A DNA stretch of 64,000 nucleotides from assembly GCA_965198115.1 (NCBI GenBank), contig OZ240241.1, forward strand, positions 5,920,001 to 5,984,000, in the 5' to 3' direction. The translations under genes were made by a program, and so were the position numbers. The stretch comes from Candidatus Latescibacterota bacterium. GTDB lineage: Bacteria > Latescibacterota > UBA2968. Numbering within the stretch: position 1 is the stretch's first letter; every line of letters begins with the position of its first letter. Below are positions 33,861 through 47,662 of this stretch, in pieces. The notes under the pieces are model-generated. The model saw nothing but the letters and a program-made list of their open reading frames with translations, was not told the DNA's origin and made no database searches.

Positions 33861-34108
33861 GAATGGTTGACGCCGGACAGCTGTATGGTGAACTTCGTCA
33901 GCATTTGGGTGAAGTCCTAAGGGAATTGGCTCGTCAGCGTGAAAGCCGCGTAGAGGAGGGCCACCTCCTTGCAGATCACGTGCATATGCTGGTGTCGATT
34001 CCGCCGAAATGCGCTGTGTCTCAGGTCGTTGGGTATATCAAGGGCAAGAGCGCGATCCACGTCGCTCGCAGTTACCTGGGACGAAGGTCGGGTAGTGGTT
34101 CACTTTGA

Positions 34109-34981
34109 CTAACTGCGATCCTCACGGTTAATCCGCCCGCCTTTCATCAGCTTCCGTTCCTCATCTTCCAGCAGCTTCACTAAATCCTCGACGGCCCAGA
34201 CCCGATCCATCAGGCCAGCGGCCATTGCGGGCGTCCTTCTCTTCAGCGTCTTGTGCTTCCGGCAGAAGTTGTAGTAGAACATATGCAGGGCAATAGCGTG
34301 CACGTGGTTGATCCACTTTTTTGAGAAGCCATTGGTCAAGCGCGTGAACCGCCGATTTCCCATCCTCATCGTCAAATTCGACCGCTCGATATAGGACGTG
34401 GAGATATGGGCGGGATCTGGGTTGCCGACCACAGGCCGAACGTCGATACCGATGCACTTAGCTGGGCTGTAAGTCCTGTCCGCGTCGGGATCGGTCCCGT
34501 ACTGCTTCACGAGCTGGGCAAAGTCACAGGCCCCACCAAAAGCCTGCTCAATGGCCTCCGGATAGAAACTCAGGCCGTCAGATGTAATTTGGGGCCGATT
34601 CAAGAGACGACCGGCAACGTCGCCCACGAAGAGGTTGGCGTAGTTTGCGGTCCGCAAACCTACCTGATAAGCAATCATCAGTTTGGTATCTGAACACAGA
34701 GCCGTCCACGTCCAGCAATCTCCGTCACCCTGGGCGCCCTTCTTGCGATTCCCTTCCTTGCATCCAACGAAAGACCAAATCTCATCCATTTCAATCCGCG
34801 TGCAGGGAAGGTCACGGACTCTCCAGTCGTGGAAATCACGGCACAAGCTGCCGACATCGGCCAGCAACCGCAGGACCGTCAGCTTAGCAGCTCCGGTCAT
34901 ACGGCACGTAGACGCAATCGAACAACCTTCTACGAGGGCTGAGATGACCGCCATCCGCTTCTCCGTGCTGAGCTTTCGCAT
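34109..34981 (-). CDS. IS1-family DDE transposase (HTH plus DDE), intact
   Basis: LVEGCSI..TCR HTH, EMDEIWSFV, ITSDG and STSYIERSNLTMRM..RRFTRLTNGFSKK. Confidence 0.92.
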   Translation of the reverse strand: MRKLSTEKRMAVISALVEGCSIASTCRMTGAAKLTVLRLLADVGSLCRDFHDWRVRDLPCTRIEMDEIWSFVGCKEGNRKKGAQGDGDCWTWTALCSDTKLMIAYQVGLRTANYANLFVGDVAGRLLNRPQITSDGLSFYPEAIEQAFGGACDFAQLVKQYGTDPDADRTYSPAKCIGIDVRPVVGNPDPAHISTSYIERSNLTMRMGNRRFTRLTNGFSKKWINHVHAIALHMFYYNFCRKHKTLKRRTPAMAAGLMDRVWAVEDLVKLLEDEERKLMKGGRINREDRS

Positions 34982-35009
34982 TGACCTAGCCCTCTTATCA
35001 AGTTATCTT
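34981..35009 (+). promoter_or_regulatory. Predicted sigma70 promoter pointing antisense into the tRNA
   Basis: TTGACC (34981-34986), 17-nt spacer, TATCTT (35004-35009). Confidence 0.5.
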
Positions 35010-35045
35010 TCAGCGTCAAGTTGGAAATGGTGATAGTGGTTTTAT

Positions 35046-35121
35046 TGGTGGAGATAGGGGGACTCGAACCCCCAACCCCCCGGGTATAAGCCAGGTGCTC
35101 TACCGATTGAGCTATATCCCC
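35046..35121 (-). tRNA. 76-nt tRNA with anticodon UAU (Ile) but alanine-type acceptor stem (G3:U70, A73), encoded CCA
   Basis: GGGGATA TA GCTC AATCGGTA GAGC A CCTGG CT-TAT-AC CCGGG GGGTT GGGGG TTCGAGT CCCCC TATCTCC A CCA gives a complete cloverleaf with U8, G18G19, U33, TTCG and A15:U48. Confidence 0.93.
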
Positions 35122-35137
35122 ACCATTTTCATGTCTT

Positions 35138-35176
35138 ACCCCTTCAGCTGTTTGCGCAGCTGAAGGGGTCTTTTTT
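35138..35176 (+). terminator. Intrinsic terminator oriented for plus-strand (antisense-to-tRNA) transcription
   Basis: 13-bp stem ACCCCTTCAGCTG / CAGCTGAAGGGGT followed by CTTTTTT on the plus strand only. Confidence 0.7.
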
Positions 35177-35190
35177 GTTTCCCCTGGCTC

Positions 35191-35874
35191 TCACTGCTCC
35201 TGCCCATCGTCTTCATCTACGTCGTCAATATCTCCTGTAGCGACATCATCGCCCAGGTTGCGCTGGAAAACAATGAACGCATCAAACCACTTGTCCTGTC
35301 GTTCAGTAGGCCACTCTGGATCGAAATCCGGGAATTTTGCCATCAACATCTGCTGCATAGTCTGTGGCTGAGGTGAAGATGAGGTCTTGCGCTTCGCCTT
35401 CACCGAAGTGGATTTCAACCGCGCGCGGCGCGTTTGAATACGTGGACTGACGGTGATACCCGCAGCCTTGCATCCGCGCCGAAAGAATCTCGTCCCTTTC
35501 TGTAGAGTGCTCCCCTCCAAGCCTTGTTCCCGGAATGCGTCCTCCAGCTGTTTTGTGGTCGCCTTCTCCAGATCAAAGTCGTCGTTGAAGATGAACGAAA
35601 ACCGTTTGCGGAAAACACGCTCCAGAATAGGAGGCGAAGTAGATTCGTCTGCCCCCGCAAGCTCCCGTAATTCTTCTGTGGGGTCTCCATCCTCAGTGAT
35701 TAACCCGAGGAAACACAACGTCCCCAAGATCTGCCCTTGCGTGCCTCCGGACTGACTTGGGAACAAGCTCTTGTCGATGCGTGCCGGAATGCCCTGTTGG
35801 AAATCTGAGACAACCCTCTCGAAAGTGCGGTACGCCAGATACGGTGGTTTTGGATCGAAGTCGGGTTGTGCCAT
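35191..35874 (-). CDS. DUF5343-like protein (transposon cargo)
   Basis: PPY...TF, P.RIDKS, L.FLGLI..DG.PT, AT..QL..AF and T..K..RFF pattern. AAGGAG RBS. Confidence 0.7.
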   Translation of the reverse strand: MAQPDFDPKPPYLAYRTFERVVSDFQQGIPARIDKSLFPSQSGGTQGQILGTLCFLGLITEDGDPTEELRELAGADESTSPPILERVFRKRFSFIFNDDFDLEKATTKQLEDAFREQGLEGSTLQKGTRFFRRGCKAAGITVSPRIQTRRARLKSTSVKAKRKTSSSPQPQTMQQMLMAKFPDFDPEWPTERQDKWFDAFIVFQRNLGDDVATGDIDDVDEDDGQEQ

Positions 35875-35901
35875 AGCGCTCTCCTTTCTTTGTGTGCTAT
35901 A

Positions 35902-35930
35902 AATGTAGTTATGCCATGTGCCGTTGTCAA
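35902..35930 (-). promoter_or_regulatory. Predicted sigma70 promoter for the DUF5343-like gene and tRNA, with an operator-like motif in the spacer
   Basis: TTGACA, 17-nt spacer, TACATT on the minus strand. The spacer motif CGGCACA-T-GGCATA recurs inverted as CGGCACA-GGC-GGCATA at 35964-35979. Confidence 0.6.
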
Positions 35931-36013
35931 TGCCAAAACTGGACTTTTTCTAATTTTTCGTTGCGGCACAGGCGGCATAGACGCACAGTACATTAGTTAA
36001 AAGGAGGTGCCAC

Positions 36014-36260
36014 ATGCGGCGGACACGTTGTTGTAGTTAAGTTGTTTACAGGACCATTAGTTCGGCGTGTTTGGGATGTAACGGACGGTGTCGTCTTCGC
36101 TGTGCACGATGACAGGTTTGCCGAATTGGAGCAAGGCAAGGGAAAAGCGCCGCTCTTTGGGTTCCCGCTTGCAGACGTGTACGAGATGAGCGAAAGCGAG
36201 GTCCCCCCAAATCCTGATTGGTTGCAGATGCACCATTGGCGACCAACAGTGGGATCGTAG
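36014..36260 (+). CDS. Small hypothetical cargo protein, one extra base just after the start codon
   Basis: AAGGAGG RBS and ATG at 36014. Removing one base gives MRGHVVVVKLFTGPLVRRVWDV...FGFPLADVYE. Confidence 0.55.
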
Positions 36261-36287
36261 GGGGAGGTGCAACGCTGACCAGCATAG

Positions 36288-36326
36288 AAAAGCCCCCTGC
36301 CTGTGTAGGCAGAGGGCTTGATTTTT
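36288..36326. terminator. Bidirectional terminator between convergent cargo genes
   Basis: AAAAGCCCCCTGCCT-GTGT-AGGCAGAGGGCTTGATTTTT. Confidence 0.65.
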
Positions 36327-36333
36327 GACACGC

Positions 36334-36474
36334 TCACTGGCTGTCTTTGTCGTCCTTGGGTTCAGTAGCCTTATCTACAAGCCACTTCGCCAGCTGGTTT
36401 GGGTCCTTCGGTCTCGGGCCGCGTCCATCCTTTTCCTTGTCGTTCTTCGCCTGTTTCTTCGGTTCGTTTTCCAT
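36334..36474 (-). CDS. 46-aa charged protein with RPKDPNQLAK motif (absent from the ORF track)
   Basis: MENEPKKQAKNDKEKDGRGPRPKDPNQLAKWLVDKATEPKDDKDSQ. I recall this motif type beside this group of IS1-like transposases. Confidence 0.6.
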   Translation of the reverse strand: MENEPKKQAKNDKEKDGRGPRPKDPNQLAKWLVDKATEPKDDKDSQ

Positions 36475-36787
36475 ACCCGAAATCTACGTCATCAGCGAAA
36501 TCGGTTCAAGCACTCAGCGTGTCGAACTATCTTTCAAAGTGAACCACTACCGAAGGTCGAACTTCGTTGGGCAGAGTTTCTGGGCAAGAGGCTACGGGTC
36601 TCCACCGTAGGCAAGGATGAACATTCAGTTCGGGAATACATCCGAAACCAAGAACAAGAAGACCGACGCGTTGATCAGCTCAATCTGCTCAGATAGTTGC
36701 CACCTTTAGGTGGCGCGAGGTTTTAAACCGCTTTGAGCGGTTCACAGGCATTCAAGCCTCCGGCTTTGCCGGAGGTAATGACTTCAC

Positions 36788-38139: not shown

Positions 38140-38575
38140 ACTGTCTTAACAGCCGTGTGTCTTGCGCCCTGCGCCATGGACGTGAGTGATCTTTCCACAC
38201 ATACGGACCTGATGAGCCTTTCAGGGTACAAGATGTACGGTCCACAAGGGATCGGGGCATTGTATATTCGCCGTGATCTCAAAGAGTCGATGGAGCCACT
38301 GTTCTACGGAGGTGGGCAGCAGGAAGGCCTGCGTTCCGGGACCGTTCCAATGCCCCTCTGCGTCGGAATGGCCAAGGCCGCAGAAATCGTTGGTGGAGAC
38401 GACGGGAAAAAGGAGCGCACACGGGTCGCTCGACAGCGCGATACATTCATTAGCCTAATCCAAGGCGGGAATTCGTCGGTCACTGTCAATGGACCGATTG
38501 GCCAGCGGCGTCATCCGGGCAACGCCAACATTTGTTTTCACGGATTCGATGCGCGAGACATCCTCGGCGTCCTTC
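38140..38575 (+). pseudogene. Cysteine desulfurase (IscS/DndA-like) internal fragment
   Basis: DLMSLSGYKMYGPQGIGALY, GGGQQEGLRSGT and RHPGNAN. Lacks both termini and the catalytic Cys loop. Confidence 0.8.
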
Positions 38576-38578
38576 GGT

Positions 38579-41500
38579 ATGAGCGGAATGACACTTGACT
38601 GGAACAGTATCAGGCCCTTGGAGGGCGGACGAGACAAGGGCTTCGAAGAGCTATGCGCCCAGCTTGCCCGGGCGGAAAGGCCCTCCGGGTCTACGTTCGT
38701 GCGAAAAGGGACTCCGGACGCTGGAGTAGAGTGCTACGCAATCCTGAGTGACGGCGCCGAGTGGGCCTGGCAGTCCAAGTATATCGACGGACTCGGGGAC
38801 TCGCAGTGGTCTCAGATCGACGGAAGTATCAAGACGGCACTCGAGAAGCATCCAAAGCTGGTCCGCTATTTTGTCTGCGCGCCAGTAGATCGCGCAGATG
38901 CACGGATTGAGGGACGGAGGTCGGCGAAAGAGCGCTGGGATGACCACGTCGCGAAGTGGAGCAGGTGGGCATCCGATCGCGGAATGACGGTCGAATTCGT
39001 CTATTGGGGCAGCCATGAGCTGCTCGAACGCTTAGCCCGACCGGTCCATATCGGGCGTGTCCGATTCTGGTTCGATGTTCGAGGCTTCGATGCCCCGTGG
39101 TTTACGGCAAGGCTCGATGAGGCATTGCTGACTGCGGGTCCTCGCCACACCCCCGAGGTCCACGTTGACCTGCCCATCGCGTGGGAGTTCGAAGTGTTCG
39201 GACGCACTGATCGCTTCTTCGACCGCGAGATGGCTAGTGCCCGGAGAATCCGCAAGAAATTGAGAGCAGTCGAGTACTCGGAGGGCGCGGCCGAACCGAC
39301 TGTTGATGCTGGGTTGGCCGCCGTGTCGTCGAAGGTTCAGACGGTCCTCAACGTGATAGGCACCATCGACGTGCAGGCAATGGGTCCGCTGCCGTTCAGA
39401 GCCATCTCGGAGCAAGTCCACGCTGCAGAAGAAGCAGCCGAGGAACTTTCACGACTCCTGGGCGAACGCGAACGACGGTTGGAGGCCAAGCAAGAATCGC
39501 GGGACACGAAGGCGCGTCGGTCTTCCTACGGGAGTAACCCGTTCCGAGATCGCAGGATTCGGCTCCTACGTCTCATCTCCGAACTCGAAGCGGCGCGGAA
39601 GTCGTTCGTGCACGCGGATAAGGTTGCGGACAGCTCTTTGATGGTCCTCCGAGGCGCAGCAGGCACTGGCAAGACTCATTTGCTATGTGACGTTGCACGA
39701 CAGCGCGTCTCTGCGGGCCGACCAACGGTGTTGCTCATGGGCCAACGCTTCGTGAGCAATGATGAACCTTGGTCCCAAGCGCTTCAGCAATTGGACCTAT
39801 CCAGTCTGTCGGTAGAGGAGTTCGTCGGTGCGCTCGAAGCCGCGGCGCAGGCCGCCGGCTCACGAGCACTGTTAGTGATCGACGCGATCAATGAGGGCGC
39901 CGGACAGAACATCTGGCCAAGCCATCTCACCGCCTTTCTGGCATACTTGGAGCGCTCGCCATGGATTGGCGTGGTGCTGGCGGTCCGTTCGTCCTTCGAA
40001 GAGTTCATCCTTCCCGCAGTCGTACGCTCCCGTGCCGCCGTCGTGACGCACTCAGGATTCAGGGGGGTTGAGTACGACGCCACTAAGACTTTCTTCGTCC
40101 ACTACGATTTGGAGCTTCCATCGACCCCGCTCCTTGCGCCGGAGTTCCAGAACCCTCTGTTTCTCAAGACGTTGTGCCGGGGTCTCCATGCGAAGGGCGA
40201 GCGTCGCCTCCCTCGCGGCTTTCACGGCATCACAGCCGTGTTCGACCTGTATCTCAGTGCGGTGAATGAGCGGCTAGCGTCGAGTCTTGACTTCGATTCC
40301 CGGATGCCATTCGTACGACAGGCTGTGGGAGCTGTTTCGGAGGCAATCCTCGACTCAGGCGAGTCCTGGCTCACCTTGACGAAGGCAGGAGAAGTCGTCA
40401 ACCGCTTTCTTGCCGGTCGGGACTTTGAGCGATCTCTCTACCGGGGACTGGTCGCAGAAGGTGTCCTTCTTGAGGAAGTGGCGCGACCGCAGGACGCGAA
40501 TGCCGAGGTGGTAGTCGTCATTGCATACGAACGTTTTGCTGATCATCTCGCAGCCAGGAGCTTGCTGGGCAGTTACCTCGACGTCAACGACCCCCCCTCT
40601 GCGTTTGCGGCGACGGGAGGTCTGGCGTTCATCTGCGATGACAAGCACTACGTTTCACCCGGCCTCCTTGAGGCCCTATGCATCCAGATTCCCGAACAGA
40701 CCGGACAGGAACTCATCTTCGTCGCTCCAACTTGTGCCGATCGATGGGGACTTGGGGACGCGTTCCGGCAGAGCCTCGTCTGGCGCACATACGCAGCTTT
40801 CTCGGAGGACACGCGCCGAGCGCTGAACAAGCTGTGCCGAAGCGAGCAGGACTGGCGCGACACCCTCGACGTGCTGCTCACCGTGGCCACGTTGCCCAGA
40901 CATCCGCTCAATGCGTGGTTTCTCGATCAGCGGCTTCGAAGAGACGCGATGCCGGATCGCGATGCGTGGTGGAGCTTGTACCTCCACCACGCGTATGGTA
41001 CCCACGGTCCCGTCGACAGGCTTGTGGATTGGGCGTCCTCGCTGGATCCGAGCACGTCGATTGATGACGAGGCCGTTGACCTGTGCGCCGTCGCGCTGTC
41101 GTGGATGCTTACCACCTCGAATCGGTTTCTGCGTGACCGCGCAACGACGGCTCTCGTGAGCCTTCTTACAGATCGCCTGGCGGCTGTGGTTCGGCTCGTT
41201 GGGCGGTTCGCTGATGTTGACGATCCGTACGTGGCCGAGCGTGTCCACGCCGTGGCGTACGGGGTCGCCATGCGCTGTCACGATCCTGTCGCAGTCGGTA
41301 CTCTGGCAACGTGTGTGTACGAGAGAGTCTTCGCTTCGGGGAGTCCGCGTCCGCATATCCTCCTCAGGGACTATGCACGCGGCGTTGTCGAGCGTGCGCT
41401 GCACCTTGGGTCGAAGATTGACGTGGTCCCCGATCGCGTTCGCCCGCCCTACAAGAGCACATGGCCCACAATCCCGACCGAGGAGAACATCAAGACGCTG

Positions 41501-43204
41501 CTACCCGATTGGTCCAAGGGAGCCCATGACAGCGGTGAGCTTGAGTGGGCGCGGAACCGAATCGGCAGCTCAGTTATGGATGACGACTTCGCGCGCTATG
41601 TGATCGGCACCAACTGGTCGGGGAGCGACTGGCTGTCATTCAAACTGGAGGAACCGCAGTGGAAACCGCCGCCGCGACCCGAGGATTTGTTGTGCTCCTT
41701 GGTTGGCGAGTTCTCGTCCGATGAGCGTACGGCCTGGGAAGAGTTTGAGGCCGCTGACGAGGCGTATTCGGCGGCATTGCGGTCGGTCTCTCATGTTTGG
41801 TTTGCGCAACGTGAGAAAGATGGCACATCGCGGAGCCTTGATCTTTCGAACTCGGAGGGCCTTGCGCAGGAGTTGGAGGCGGCACGCCCTGCCGAGGTTG
41901 CGGCGTTGGAAGCGAAACGAGAGCAGGCAATCGTCGCCTTGGAGGCGGTTCTCTCTGGCGAGCATGCGCAGCGACTAGCCAAGATCTGGTCCGCGCGGGA
42001 AAACGACCACGAGTCACGTCGTCCGCCTCGGTTCGAGCTTCACGAGATCCAGCGCTACGTTCTCTGGCGGGTCTTCGACCTGGGATGGACGACCGAGCGT
42101 TTCGGGTACTTCGACTGGTTCTACAGCGGATACCACGGACGTGATGCATCGAAGGCAGAGCGGATCGGCAAGAAATACCAGTGGATCGCATACCACGAGA
42201 TCATGGCGCTAGTTTCCGATCACTACCAATACCGAGAGTGTTTTCGAGAGGAAGAGGGCGATCAGGCGTATGAAGGACCTTGGCAGGGTCGCCTTCGAGA
42301 CATCGACCCTTCGTGCACGTTGAGATCTCTACGAGGCGGAGGCTCCTGGGACGGCCATGCAGTCTCGTGGTGGGGGTCGGCTCGGTACGATGCTTGGGGA
42401 GATCCCCTCAGGCCTCTCGACTGGGTCCTGAACGCTAACGACTTGCCGAAAGTCGAGGACCTGCTCGTCGTCACCAACCCCGCGGACGACTCGCGCTGGG
42501 TGAACGGCCAAGGTTTCTTCTCTTGGAAGCAGCAACCACCGACAGATCGGGAATCGACCGACGTCGAGCGTCGTGAGCTTTGGTACAAGTGCACAGGCTA
42601 CTTGCTCCGGGCAGATGACGTGGAGTCCTTCTTGCGGTGGGCCGAGGGGACCGACTTTGCGCGTTGTTGGATGCCGGAGGCGGTCAAGGTCGACGAAATC
42701 TTCCTGGGCGAGCACGCTTGGGCAACGGCCTCTCACTACTTCCAGCACCCATATTACGGTGACGACGGCTGGACCCAGCCGGCCCACGGCTGCCCAGTGA
42801 AGGTCCGGACCGTCACGTGCGAGTATCTGCGCGAGACAAGTGGCTTCGACTGCTCCATCGAAGAGAGCTACACACTTCGTCTACCCGCCATCGACCTTGT
42901 CAACGGCCTCGGAATCTGGTGGAGCGGGCGTGGCGCCGACTTCGTGGATGGTGCGGACCGAGTCGTTGCACAGGATCCAACAGTTCATTCCGAGGGTCCG
43001 GGCGCCATGCTCCTTAGAGATGATCTACTTGGAGAGTTTCTGGCCCGCGAGAAGCTCGCGATCTGCTGGGCTGTCTTTGGTGAGAAGCGCGTGATTTCGC
43101 CGGGCTTTGGGACCGGGCCCCATCATCCCCGGCTCCGTGTGTCCGGGGCGTACGTGCTTGCAGAGGGACGCGCAGTGGGCTTCGTCAAAACCCATGATCG
43201 ATGA
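38579..43204 (+). CDS. Large STAND/NACHT NTPase with N-terminal PD-(D/E)xK-like nuclease, AVAST (Avs2-like) antiphage protein
   Basis: N-terminal FEELCAQL...PDAGVECY...WQSKY. Walker A GAAGTGKTH, Walker B LLVIDAINE, NPLFLK and C-terminal ERIGKKYQWIAYHE. About 1540 aa. Confidence 0.78.
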   Translation: MSGMTLDWNSIRPLEGGRDKGFEELCAQLARAERPSGSTFVRKGTPDAGVECYAILSDGAEWAWQSKYIDGLGDSQWSQIDGSIKTALEKHPKLVRYFVCAPVDRADARIEGRRSAKERWDDHVAKWSRWASDRGMTVEFVYWGSHELLERLARPVHIGRVRFWFDVRGFDAPWFTARLDEALLTAGPRHTPEVHVDLPIAWEFEVFGRTDRFFDREMASARRIRKKLRAVEYSEGAAEPTVDAGLAAVSSKVQTVLNVIGTIDVQAMGPLPFRAISEQVHAAEEAAEELSRLLGERERRLEAKQESRDTKARRSSYGSNPFRDRRIRLLRLISELEAARKSFVHADKVADSSLMVLRGAAGTGKTHLLCDVARQRVSAGRPTVLLMGQRFVSNDEPWSQALQQLDLSSLSVEEFVGALEAAAQAAGSRALLVIDAINEGAGQNIWPSHLTAFLAYLERSPWIGVVLAVRSSFEEFILPAVVRSRAAVVTHSGFRGVEYDATKTFFVHYDLELPSTPLLAPEFQNPLFLKTLCRGLHAKGERRLPRGFHGITAVFDLYLSAVNERLASSLDFDSRMPFVRQAVGAVSEAILDSGESWLTLTKAGEVVNRFLAGRDFERSLYRGLVAEGVLLEEVARPQDANAEVVVVIAYERFADHLAARSLLGSYLDVNDPPSAFAATGGLAFICDDKHYVSPGLLEALCIQIPEQTGQELIFVAPTCADRWGLGDAFRQSLVWRTYAAFSEDTRRALNKLCRSEQDWRDTLDVLLTVATLPRHPLNAWFLDQRLRRDAMPDRDAWWSLYLHHAYGTHGPVDRLVDWASSLDPSTSIDDEAVDLCAVALSWMLTTSNRFLRDRATTALVSLLTDRLAAVVRLVGRFADVDDPYVAERVHAVAYGVAMRCHDPVAVGTLATCVYERVFASGSPRPHILLRDYARGVVERALHLGSKIDVVPDRVRPPYKSTWPTIPTEENIKTLLPDWSKGAHDSGELEWARNRIGSSVMDDDFARYVIGTNWSGSDWLSFKLEEPQWKPPPRPEDLLCSLVGEFSSDERTAWEEFEAADEAYSAALRSVSHVWFAQREKDGTSRSLDLSNSEGLAQELEAARPAEVAALEAKREQAIVALEAVLSGEHAQRLAKIWSARENDHESRRPPRFELHEIQRYVLWRVFDLGWTTERFGYFDWFYSGYHGRDASKAERIGKKYQWIAYHEIMALVSDHYQYRECFREEEGDQAYEGPWQGRLRDIDPSCTLRSLRGGGSWDGHAVSWWGSARYDAWGDPLRPLDWVLNANDLPKVEDLLVVTNPADDSRWVNGQGFFSWKQQPPTDRESTDVERRELWYKCTGYLLRADDVESFLRWAEGTDFARCWMPEAVKVDEIFLGEHAWATASHYFQHPYYGDDGWTQPAHGCPVKVRTVTCEYLRETSGFDCSIEESYTLRLPAIDLVNGLGIWWSGRGADFVDGADRVVAQDPTVHSEGPGAMLLRDDLLGEFLAREKLAICWAVFGEKRVISPGFGTGPHHPRLRVSGAYVLAEGRAVGFVKTHDR

Positions 43205-44806: not shown

Positions 44807-47662
44807 ATGGCGATGATCACACCCGAACGCGATCTTGAAGAGTCCCTTGTCACGAAGCTACGGGACCTCAAGTACGAATACCGCCCCGACATCCGCGATC
44901 GAGCCAAGCTTGAAGCGAACTTCAGGGAGAAGTTCGAGGCACTCAACCGCGTCAACCTCACCGGCGGAGAGTTCCAGCGACTCCTCGACGAGATCGTCAC
45001 ACCAGATGTGTACGAAGCCGCACGCTCCCTCCGGAACCGGGAAGCGTTCATCCGTGACGACGGCACGCCGCTCAATTACACCCTCGTCGACATCAAGGAC
45101 TGGTGCAAGAACACCTTCGAGGTCGTTAATCAGCTCCGCATCAATACGGACAACAGCCATCATCGCTACGACGTCATATTCCTGATCAACGGCGTACCCG
45201 TTGTCCAGATCGAGCTCAAGACGCTTGGGATCAGCCCCCGTAGGGCGATGGAGCAGATCGTCGACTACAAGAACGACCCCGGTAACGGATACGCCAAGAC
45301 GCTTCTGTGCTTCGTCCAGCTCTTCATCGTCAGCAACCTCACGGACACGTGGTACTTCGCCAACAACAACGCGCGGCATTTCGCCTTCGACGCTGACGAG
45401 CGGTTCCTTCCCATCTACCAGTTCGCGGCCGAGGACAACACGAAGATCACCCACCTCGACGACTTCGCCGATCGGTTCCTGGCCAAGTGCACACTCGGCC
45501 AGATGCTCAGCAAGTATATGGTCCTCATCGCGAGCGAGCAGAAGCTCCTGATGATGCGCCCGTACCAGATCTACGCCGTCAAGGCCATCGTCGACTGCAT
45601 CGACCAGAACTGCGGCAACGGCTACATCTGGCACACGACCGGCTCGGGCAAGACGCTCACCTCTTTCAAAACCTCGACACTCCTCAAGACCAACGAGAGC
45701 ATCCACAAGTGTCTGTTCGTCGTCGACCGCAAGGACCTCGACCGCCAGACCCGCGAGGAGTTCAACCGATTCCAAGAGAACTGCGTCGAGGAAAACACCA
45801 ACACCGCAGCGCTTGTCTGCCGCCTCCAGTCCGACGACTACGCGGACAAGGTCATCGTCACGACCATCCAGAAGCTCGGGCTCGCCCTCGACGAGAACAG
45901 CAAGCACAACAAGCAAAACCTCGCTCAGGGGCGGTCAACGTTCAAGCAGCGGCTCGGGCAGCTCCGCGACAAGCGGATGGTCTTCATCTTCGACGAGTGC
46001 CACCGCTCGCAGTTCGGCGAGAACCACAAGGCCATCAAGGAGTTCTTCCCGAACTCCCAGCTCTTCGGCTTCACTGGCACCCCGATCTTTAAGGACAACG
46101 CGACCGTCAAGCAGATCGAGGGAGACATCGCCACCCTTCGAACCACCAAGGACCTCTTCCAGAAGGAGCTCCACGCCTACACCATCACCCACGCGATCGA
46201 GGATCGGAACGTCCTCCGCTTCCACGTCGACTACTACAAGCCAAAGGACGCCCCCGCCCTCAAGCCCGGTGAGACCCTCGCCAAGCAGGCGGTCGCTCAG
46301 GCCATCCTCGACAAGCACGATGCCGCGACCGGAGACCGACGCTTCAACGCGCTGCTGGCCACCGCCTCGATCAACGACGCCATCGAGTATTACAAGGTCT
46401 TCAAGCAGCTTCAGACCCAACGCCCGGCCGACGACCCCGAGTTCGTCCCCCTCAAGGTCGCCGCCGTCTTCTCGCCGCCAGCGGAGGGCAACAAGGACGT
46501 CCAGCAGATCCAGGAGGACCTCCCCCAGGAGAAGGAGGACAACCAGCACGACCCCGAGGGCAAGAAGACCGCGCTCAGGGCCATCATCACCGACTACAAC
46601 CAGCAGTACGGCACGAACCACGACATCAACAACTTCGACCTCTACTACCAAGACATCCAGCAGCGCATCAAGGACCAGCAGTTCCCCAACCGCGACCTGC
46701 CCCGGAAGGGCGAGGAGAAGGTCGACATTACCATCGTCGTCGACATGCTCCTCACCGGCTTCGACGCCGTGTACCTCAACACGCTCTACGTCGATAAGAA
46801 CCTCAAGCACCACGGCTTGATCCAGGCCTTCTCCCGCACCAACCGCGTCCTCAACGCGACCAAACCCTACGGCCACATCCTCGACTTCCGCCAGCAGCAA
46901 GACAGCGTCGACGCCGCTATCGCTCTCTTCTCCGGTGCGCAGGCTGACCGGGCCCGCGAGATCTGGCTGGTCGAAAAAGCTCCCGTCGTCATCGACAACT
47001 TCGAGCAGGCCGTTGCCGACCTTGGCGAGTTCATGCAGTCGCAGGGCCTCGAAGCCAAGCCCGATCAGGTGAACAACATGATGGGCGACGACGCCCGTGC
47101 CCAGTTCATCAAGCGATTCAAGGAGGTCCAGTGCCTCCAGACCCAACTCGACCAGTACACCGACCTCACCGACGAGCAGCGCGAGCAGATTGAGCAGGTC
47201 CTCCCCGAGCACGACCTCCGCGCCTTCCGCGGCACCTACCTCGAAACGGCCCAGCGCCTGAAAGAGCAGCAGGGCACGCCCGGCGGGGACGGCGAGCCGG
47301 CCAACCTCGAGATCACGGATAGCAGATCGCCCGAGCACCTCAGCTCCGAATGTCTGGTTCATCTCTTTCGAGACGCACACCGGAAGGGGGACGATCGCCG
47401 TACGAGCGCAATATTGCCGGTCCTGCTCGGTCGCTGCGAGGCGATCCTCAAGACGAAGATCCTAGATTCGGAGCGCGGTGCCAGTGAAATGCGGGAAGAG
47501 GTGTTGTCCAGATTCGGCGAGGTGCTCGCCAGCGACGGCCGACCGAGCTCGACATGTATGAGTGCAGATTCAATCGAGCCTTTCACGCCCTACGCTTCGA
47601 TGTTGTGGATCGCGAACGTAGACGCCTCTAGGGCGCACTGTGGAAGTACCACGTGGGGATGA
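44807..47662 (+). CDS. hsdR: Type I restriction enzyme R subunit, C-terminus replaced by unrelated sequence after ~47310
   Basis: RYDVIFLINGVPVVQIELK, WHTTGSGKT, DECHRSQ, FTGTP, MLLTGFD and QAFSRTNR. Codon style changes abruptly near 47310. Only scraps of hsdM are present (44676-44720, 47820-47880). Confidence 0.9.
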   Translation: MAMITPERDLEESLVTKLRDLKYEYRPDIRDRAKLEANFREKFEALNRVNLTGGEFQRLLDEIVTPDVYEAARSLRNREAFIRDDGTPLNYTLVDIKDWCKNTFEVVNQLRINTDNSHHRYDVIFLINGVPVVQIELKTLGISPRRAMEQIVDYKNDPGNGYAKTLLCFVQLFIVSNLTDTWYFANNNARHFAFDADERFLPIYQFAAEDNTKITHLDDFADRFLAKCTLGQMLSKYMVLIASEQKLLMMRPYQIYAVKAIVDCIDQNCGNGYIWHTTGSGKTLTSFKTSTLLKTNESIHKCLFVVDRKDLDRQTREEFNRFQENCVEENTNTAALVCRLQSDDYADKVIVTTIQKLGLALDENSKHNKQNLAQGRSTFKQRLGQLRDKRMVFIFDECHRSQFGENHKAIKEFFPNSQLFGFTGTPIFKDNATVKQIEGDIATLRTTKDLFQKELHAYTITHAIEDRNVLRFHVDYYKPKDAPALKPGETLAKQAVAQAILDKHDAATGDRRFNALLATASINDAIEYYKVFKQLQTQRPADDPEFVPLKVAAVFSPPAEGNKDVQQIQEDLPQEKEDNQHDPEGKKTALRAIITDYNQQYGTNHDINNFDLYYQDIQQRIKDQQFPNRDLPRKGEEKVDITIVVDMLLTGFDAVYLNTLYVDKNLKHHGLIQAFSRTNRVLNATKPYGHILDFRQQQDSVDAAIALFSGAQADRAREIWLVEKAPVVIDNFEQAVADLGEFMQSQGLEAKPDQVNNMMGDDARAQFIKRFKEVQCLQTQLDQYTDLTDEQREQIEQVLPEHDLRAFRGTYLETAQRLKEQQGTPGGDGEPANLEITDSRSPEHLSSECLVHLFRDAHRKGDDRRTSAILPVLLGRCEAILKTKILDSERGASEMREEVLSRFGEVLASDGRPSSTCMSADSIEPFTPYASMLWIANVDASRAHCGSTTWG

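Follow-up and report, generated by a model that had tools for sequence, protein, structure and literature searches.

Organization of the transposon

The window, a stretch of 64,000 nucleotides, contains an IS1-family transposon with passenger genes (Table 1), which is inserted in an IS200/IS605 tnpA gene whose two halves were found on either side of it. The empty site is represented in contigs of runs X1 and X3 (two studies), which join position 34081 to 36551 and skip 2469 bases. A DDE transposase, terminal inverted repeats and an 8-bp target duplication, the attributes of the IS1 family, in which such duplications measure 8-9 bp, are all present, and plasmid relatives of the transposase carry the annotation IS1 family. 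The transposase matches PF03400 above the cut-off; its match to NF033558 (E 1.4e-14, 54.5 bits) is under the 100-bit cut-off of that model.

Table 1. Positions of the transposon, its genes and its regulatory signals in the window
Feature	Position	Strand	Description	Basis
Left target-site duplication	34083..34090	+	8 bp; right copy at 36552-36559	
IS1-family transposon with passenger genes	34091..36551		2461 bp	Terminal repeats, target duplication, empty-site joint
Left terminal inverted repeat	34091..34108	+	18 bp; partner at 36534-36551	100% complementary
IS1-family DDE transposase	34109..34981	-	290 aa; 0 AUA codons	PF03400, E 3.4e-6
Antisense promoter (putative, sigma70-type)	34981..35009	+	TTGACC-17-TATCTT	Consensus scan, weighted score, shuffles
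Transposase promoter (weak candidate)	34992..35019	-	TTGACG-16-TAAGAG	Score 13.2, inferred
Predicted antisense RNA	35016..35177	+	About 160 nt; spans the whole tRNA	Inferred from promoter and terminator
tRNA	35046..35121	-	76 nt; anticodon UAU, C38, encoded CCA	Rfam RF00005, 70.9 bits
Intrinsic terminator (putative)	35138..35176	+	Stem of 13 bp, then a U6 tract; plus-strand polarity	Scan
DUF5343 passenger gene	35191..35874	-	227 aa; 0 AUA codons	Pfam, E 2.5e-5
Promoter-like site	35902..35930	-	TTGACA-17-TACATT; strongest in the element	Consensus scan and weighted score
Small ORF	36334..36474	-	46 aa; RDPNQLAK-type motif	Six-frame translation; similar ORFs in relatives

Read along the minus strand, the element consists of the RDPNQ-type ORF, a strong promoter (35930), DUF5343, a hairpin, the tRNA, a weak promoter and the transposase. 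Small ORFs of the RDPNQLAK type are typical of the left end in these IS1-type elements; in plasmid L035 the gene in this position is annotated as 'histone H1'. The Pfam match of the DUF5343 protein is just under the curated cut-off (Atlas feature score 0.96). Relatives of it were absent from the viral contigs, and no solved relative was found. Judging by its sequence, the promoter-like site upstream of this gene is the likely source of a transcript reading through DUF5343 and the tRNA. Divergent from DUF5343 lies a unit at 36014-36260 (plus strand) with a strong ribosome-binding site, an 8-codon ORF and a 72-aa ORF without Pfam match; it ends in a two-way hairpin near 36290-36320. Further along the plus strand of the window are genes for a 1571-aa P-loop protein (38489-43204) and a 951-aa product resembling, by eye, a type I restriction subunit (44807-47662), which suggests that the region is rich in defence genes.

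Identity of the tRNA

The tRNA has a canonical 7/5 fold with a 5-nt variable loop, and the hallmarks of allo-tRNAs (an 8/4 or 9/3 acceptor branch, a long variable arm) are absent from it. ARAGORN labels it tRNA-Ile. Beyond the anticodon, the identity of Ile tRNAs includes A38 and C4-G69; both are missing here, the corresponding positions being C38 and G4-C69. The acceptor stem (G1-C72, G2-C71, G3:U70, G4-C69, A73) instead matches the host tRNA-Ala(UGC) at every position, and the tRNA-Ala identity set of G3:U70, A73 and G2-C71 is complete. Among the 66 CCA-ending tRNA genes of the host, G3:U70 is restricted to two tRNA-Ala genes and the tRNA of the element, and this pair is described as sufficient for recognition by AlaRS (PMC11415595). 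A tRNA with U34 in a UAU anticodon is reported to bind strongly to AUA and weakly to AUG (PMC3919564). Over 1867 long ORFs of the host, AUA is the second rarest codon, at 2.5 per 1000. Because TilS and four CAU tRNAs, one of them Ile2-like by eye, are encoded in the host genome, no extra reader of AUA is needed. From its acceptor stem and anticodon, the product is likely an Ile-to-Ala missense tRNA which would place alanine at AUA codons. Annotations of tRNA-Ile(UAU) on mobile elements can accordingly denote Ala- or Ser-type molecules.

A role as private decoder for the genes of the element was considered and rejected: the transposase and DUF5343 genes contain 0 AUA codons where about 1.2 are expected, which is not a significant difference. 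The host also possesses an array of 20 tRNA genes (C1:2870558-2872531), which includes another UAU tRNA lacking G3:U70.

The putative antisense transcription unit

The original prediction placed a promoter, TTGACC-N17-TATCTT, on the plus strand just before the tRNA, and this site is present at 34981-35009 as it stated. By weighted score it is one of only two plus-strand sites reaching at least 15 in the whole 64 kb, and its score was matched in at most 1 of 60 shuffles (p about 0.03). Its -35 box adjoins the ATG of the transposase, and it overlaps the weak candidate promoter of that gene. Plain consensus scanning over 6 kb was not discriminating, as it yielded four promoters against 1.9 +/- 1.3 in shuffles and seven terminators against 5.6 by chance; since these numbers are near chance, the case rests on comparison with relatives.

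The terminator hairpin comprises 13 Watson-Crick pairs (35138-35150 with 35157-35169) and is followed by CTTTTTTGTTT on the plus strand and by the A-rich tail AAGACATGAAA on the minus strand, so that the U tract is one-sided, as had been predicted. The RNA expected from this promoter and terminator is calculated to fold into a rod plus the terminator (-72.8 kcal/mol; z -5.7 including the terminator). Its duplex with the tRNA precursor is predicted at -343 kcal/mol, compared with -73 and -64 kcal/mol for the single strands. The rod-like fold was rejected as a family trait: it gave p 0.02 in the window but was found in just 4/16 elements, and 4/53 host tRNAs passed as well. Action on host tRNAs in trans is unlikely, the longest matches being 18 nt exact and 22-24 nt with mismatches, and the best-matching host tRNA is identical at 54/76 positions.

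The leader and trailer of the tRNA are complementary (35022-35032 with 35121-35131), and base pairing is also possible between the 3' ACCA and the four nucleotides that precede G1. Such pairing may slow processing of the tRNA; it is not a family trait among the relatives compared.

Related elements and their tRNA cargo

Relatives of the transposase were taken from metagenome, viral, plasmid and genome collections. The first set was obtained from 216 loci with a transposase start by removing 39 redundant and 3 short ones, leaving 174; a locus belonging to an unpublished genome was excluded. A replication set of 61 new non-redundant elements was drawn from 79 loci. Across both sets, a tRNA whose body and anticodon disagree lies upstream of the transposase gene in 30/235 non-redundant elements.

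In the first set, based on ARAGORN calls and T-arm matches checked by eye, 18 elements (that of the window included) have the tRNA on the transposase strand, 3 have it on the opposite strand and 153 are tRNA-less. The ARAGORN calls upstream on the transposase strand are concentrated near the gene, with 15 in the first 500 nt, 1 at 500-1000 nt and 0 at 1000-1500 nt. The replication set contributed 12/61, one of which (L361) was found by a pattern that required a T-arm and no bracket feature. By eye, the tRNA bodies are of Ala, Ser, Leu, Arg, His, allo or Sec-like type, the anticodons are mostly UAU or UUA, and body and anticodon agree in none of them. Six (L005, L300, L332, L333, L031 and L315) are allo-tRNA-like, and in three of the elements (L031, L300 and L315) the tRNA and the divergent promoter share a strand. 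Two of the tRNAs, in L412 and L419, have long-arm Sec-like bodies with Ala anticodons and no G3:U70, together with very strong antisense promoters.

On a FastTree phylogeny of 163 transposases, the tRNA label changes 15 times for 17 labelled rows; the tRNA is therefore not one inherited block. Some tRNA-bearing pairs are nevertheless kin (L043/L052 and L060/L333). The slot occupied by the tRNA was also scanned in 63 tRNA-less relatives (every second of 128 elements), and protein toxin-antitoxin genes were found in 7/63 (HigB in three, Fic in two, Panacea in one and an AbiEii-type gene in one) and HTH-IrrE regulators in 8/63.

One relative, L123 (1290-1490, approximate, minus strand), is a 200-bp non-autonomous element which has the terminal repeats of the family and an 8-bp duplication, lacks a transposase and carries an Ala-body tRNA(GUC) as its sole cargo. 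No convincing tRNA was found in three further mini-elements. A search with the pattern of G3:U70 and a non-Ala anticodon returned 7 viral and 48 genome matches (L120-L174, 55 tRNA genes), among which the anticodons GUC, GAU, GAG, GAA, CUA and UCU recur across phyla. Some of these genes have the appearance of erroneous tRNA-Ala sequences; others resemble genuine missense or suppressor tRNAs. None of the matches lies beside an IS1 transposase by HMM and 2/45 assessable ones are bracketed. With the exception of L123, these tRNAs were rejected as members of the same class, several being located in rRNA or tRNA operons and resembling sequence errors.

Conservation of the bracket

Conservation of promoter and terminator polarity in homologous elements had been proposed as a check of the antisense RNA, and it was found: an antisense promoter and terminator bracket the tRNA in 14/30 tRNA-bearing elements, compared with 3/202 tRNA-less elements and 1/53 host tRNAs. 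In the first set the bracket was detected in 9/18 tRNA-bearing elements, 2/153 tRNA-less elements and 1/53 host tRNAs; with criteria fixed before the replication set was scored, it was detected there in 5/12 tRNA-bearing and 1/49 tRNA-less elements. The p values for the bracket are overstated, since kin are not independent.

The two signals were also scored separately. In the first set, 12/18 elements have a strict antisense terminator in the 110 nt upstream of their tRNA, while the next two 110-nt windows contain it in 0/18 and 0/18; the controls gave 4/53 host tRNAs and 5/153 tRNA-less elements at matched distance. Terminators in the sense orientation were found within the same 110 nt in 2/18. 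Antisense promoters scoring at least 14 are present in 10/18 tRNA-bearing elements, 4/53 host tRNAs and 22/153 tRNA-less elements, and the replication set gave 5/12 against 1/49 for the terminator and 7/12 against 6/49 for the promoter. The element tRNAs differ from those of the host in having a sense promoter of their own in 1/18 (28/53 in the host) and a sense terminator of their own in 0/18 (22/53).

The strict bracket fails in 16/30 tRNA-bearing elements, and in four elements from Chloroflexota samples a sub-threshold promoter was seen by eye directly at the tRNA end. Under looser rules the contrast between tRNA-bearing elements and controls shrinks: a loose terminator test over 310 nt (antisense or both) discriminated poorly (T 13/18, C 25/49, N 13/21), and the promoter alone gave T 10/18 against 29/83 for elements with divergent genes (p 0.12). 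At the strict thresholds, the predicted antisense transcription unit is supported by comparison with relatives.

A second copy of the unit

Close copies of the unit were absent from 167 other genomes of the phylum and from plasmids. A second copy was found in one contig of run X3 (another study), which spans the unit at a depth of 2. Its tRNA differs at 6/76 positions, all of them compatible with the fold: in the anticodon stem G31-C39 is replaced by A31-U39 and U29:G41 by U-A, with no alteration of the anticodon or the acceptor stem. In the terminator, a G-C pair has become A-T by compensatory change and the loop has been replaced, with the U tract kept, and the promoter has unchanged hexamers and two substitutions in the spacer. 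At this depth single errors are possible; the paired changes are unlikely to be errors.

Comparison with known systems

The original prediction likened the arrangement to type I toxin-antitoxin systems, except that the toxin would be a tRNA. The likeness to the hok/sok kind lies in an antisense RNA antitoxin encoded on the opposite strand and in the association with mobile elements (PMC10767807), and the antisense part of the comparison has gained support from the relatives. The class assignment has shifted: the antisense RNA covers a tRNA and not the ORF of a toxic peptide, and no minus-strand ORF of at least 50 aa, the size to which the test was limited, lies under it. The closest class is type VIII, in which both toxin and antitoxin are RNA, as described for SdsR-RyeA, encoded on opposite strands, and for CreTA (PMC10767807). 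SdsR and RyeA overlap on opposite strands, as is predicted here. The signals for such an overlap (promoter, terminator and tRNA) are present and conserved; by architecture, the pair would work in a manner closer to type VIII. It differs in that an entire tRNA adaptor, carried on an IS1 transposon, is the candidate toxin and would act via the ribosome. CreT, as described in PMC10767807, differs in that it sequesters a tRNA and needs CRISPR-Cas. In Rfam only the tRNA reaches its gathering score, and there is no sequence link to a type VIII RNA family.

The tRNA itself resembles the allo-tRNAs and irregular tRNAs reported by Mukai et al. 2017 (PMC5389517; review PMC7609411), which have non-cognate anticodons, UAU being the commonest. 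These are described as having Ser or Ala identity, as lying near transposon genes and toxin-antitoxin systems, and as being toxic in E. coli in some cases (PMC5389517). The tRNA of the window differs from them in its canonical 7/5 fold and short arm, and allo-tRNAs fill the same slot in relatives. The word 'antisense' does not occur in the text of Mukai et al. 2017, one supplement of it or the review PMC7609411, and the purpose of transposon-linked, anticodon-mismatched tRNAs was left unsettled there (PMC5389517). The reversed bracket offers a testable answer, namely that mismatched transposon tRNAs are kept off by antisense RNA and would therefore be conditional.

A further mismatch between identity and anticodon is known from tRNAProX of Streptomyces and relatives, which is reported to be toxic when expressed in E. 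coli; it differs in its Pro identity and in having a dedicated partner, ProRSx (PMC10404621). The strings 'transpos', 'antisense' and 'mobile' have 0 occurrences in the available text of that paper. In the literature searched, largely open-access papers, neither an antisense-controlled tRNA toxin nor an antisense-controlled tRNA gene was found.

Antisense RNAs are familiar in insertion sequences in another form. RNA-OUT of IS10 and other antisense RNAs of IS elements are short transcripts whose promoter adjoins the start of the transposase gene and reads away from that gene. RNA-OUT overlaps the translation start of its transposase. The RNA predicted here differs in that it covers the tRNA and would start near 35016, about 35 nt upstream of the ATG (34981), so that the ribosome-binding site is left uncovered and overlap exists solely with the read-through leader. 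As a transposon, the element resembles IS1-family members with passenger genes, which we take to be the class called 'transporter IS', in its DDE transposase, short repeats starting with GGTA, 8-bp duplication and cargo between the repeats; it differs in that the cargo includes a tRNA of conflicting body and anticodon, together with a transcription unit running in reverse.

Proposed function and alternatives

The reading that we prefer, at even odds of being right and on evidence drawn from sequence, is that the tRNA acts as a mistranslating toxin which an antisense RNA made in cis keeps silent, the two forming a module of RNA toxin and RNA antitoxin. The view of the tRNA as a toxin, already part of the original prediction, has thereby acquired a mechanism, alanine acceptor identity combined with a UAU anticodon, the remainder being predicted. 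Apparently having no promoter or terminator of its own, the tRNA would be made by read-through from the DUF5343 promoter, and the hairpin, which should not terminate in the DUF5343-to-tRNA direction, would let the precursor pass. By established identity rules AlaRS would charge the tRNA, which would read AUA well and AUG weakly. The antisense RNA would pair with the whole precursor, and either processing would be blocked or RNase III would cleave the duplex. In the least certain step, antisense transcription would stop upon loss of the element, phage shut-off or stress, and mature tRNA might then accumulate and mistranslate AUA-containing proteins.

AT-rich incoming genes would suffer most, since AUA is rare in the host; by the same rarity and the weak reading of AUG by U34, toxicity to this host could be mild. 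Growth effects of comparable molecules have been reported: missense allo-tRNAs arrest E. coli (PMC5389517), and tRNAProX impairs it (PMC10404621). Mukai et al. also describe six allo-tRNA(UAU) amber variants which were inactive in E. coli, yet two of them killed cells (PMC5389517). Somewhat short of even is the chance that IS1-type transposons widely carry code-rewriting tRNAs as toxins, a cis-antisense 'anti-tRNA' RNA keeping each one locked until it is released, for example, by phage shut-off. That set might include missense and ochre tRNAs with Ala, Ser, Leu, Arg and His bodies, directed at the rare-codon targets AUA, UAA and AGU. If true, a functional tRNA would for the first time be the effector of a toxin-antitoxin or defence system. 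The 160-nt unit is small enough for a direct test in E. coli.

The main alternative, though rather unlikely, is an antisense switch on transposition. The tRNA would serve or poison the transposase of its own element, or simply ride in the read-through leader, with the host proteome as a bystander; the antisense RNA would act in the manner of IS10 RNA-OUT and cut the DUF5343-tRNA-transposase transcript, and its promoter would occlude that of the transposase. This agrees with the overlap of the two promoters and with the lack of a sense terminator after the tRNA, and a clustering of codons in the transposases of relatives speaks for it as well. In the transposases of six relatives whose UAU tRNAs are of Ser or allo type, AUA accounts for 2/48 Ile codons where the column is strongly aliphatic and for 19/36 at other columns, a result that was the same under another alignment; tRNA-less elements have no such bias (140/1396 at aliphatic columns, 64/562 elsewhere). 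The near-absence of AUA from core aliphatic columns fits real mistranslation in cis and counts in favour of the preferred reading. AUA clusters at columns 150-195 in five of the six UAU relatives (17/21 against 37/204), and AGU clusters likewise in four Arg-body relatives (13/22 against 58/252), even at an invariant Ser; the AGU counts of the latter are 8, 7, 6 and 2, compared with GC-matched values of 2.7, 2.1, 3.5 and 1.5. These clusters are unexplained by the toxin model and point to a transposase-linked role. In the window, AUG codons of the transposase at small-residue columns rank 2 of 153 and 7 of 201, a post hoc comparison.

Such a link is not general. The transposase of the window has no AUA; the columns that hold this codon in relatives are occupied by AUC. 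In six elements with ochre anticodons, the aligned columns of the first 270 transposase codons are free of in-frame UAA and UAG, the transposase of L059 contains no CCG, and L123 has a tRNA of this kind without any transposase. In L060 and L333 the clusters appear for the non-cognate codon too, so ancestry contributes to them. Elements in which clusters of the cognate codon (AUA or AGU) were seen at columns 150-195 are L226, L300, L332, L333, L005, L060, L426 and L431. Read-through of ochre codons in the elements' own genes was rejected, there being no in-frame target in the six transposases, one of which (1/6) ends in UAA.

It is quite unlikely that the antisense unit is a by-product, in which a divergent promoter fires anyway, the terminator shields the upstream cargo and a tRNA, being costly, persists only in the backward-transcribed orientation. 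Divergent promoters do exist in 29/83 elements with divergent genes, and units of promoter, short RNA and terminator without a tRNA occur in L004, L009 and L307. Against this, the terminator lies immediately past the tRNA, and in no case does it separate the tRNA from the promoter (0/30 in the 90 nt at the tRNA 3' end), and an antisense terminator at the same distance is present in only 6/202 tRNA-less elements. In L431 the bracket accompanies a tRNA located 564 nt from the transposase start, and the compensatory changes in the second copy have kept the cloverleaf on the sense strand.

Very unlikely is a harmless or helpful adaptor which decodes AUA as Ile or acts as a decoy outside translation, and whose level the antisense RNA would only tune. 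The ARAGORN call and the second UAU tRNA in the host array are in keeping with it, as is the observation that in two genomes of the phylum the acceptor stem of tRNA-Ile(GAU) differs by one base (C70). It is disfavoured by C38 and G4-C69, which depart from Ile identity, by the TilS of the host, by the disagreement of body and anticodon in all tRNAs of the relatives (by eye) and by the reported sufficiency of G3:U70 for AlaRS (PMC11415595). Chance matches to promoter and terminator consensus, which the near-chance yield of the plain scan in 6 kb would allow, are largely refuted and highly improbable given the frequency of the bracket in tRNA-bearing elements over both controls, its replication with pre-set criteria and the compensatory stem change.

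Other IS1-type elements and remnants in the host genome

A second IS1-clade element (L031) is located in the same genome, G000, at C1:4042221-4044128, with an in-frame TGA in its transposase gene. Its divergent promoter faces a 9/3 allo-tRNA-like gene and then a 267-aa ORF, the tRNA being on the strand of the promoter. At C1:6472679-6472711 a 33-bp element, consisting of two terminal repeats only and flanked by an 8-bp target duplication, interrupts a gene. A copy of the transposase end, 95% identical, was found at C1:1128935-1129402, where it is cut by a long ORF which appears, by eye, to be transposase-like.
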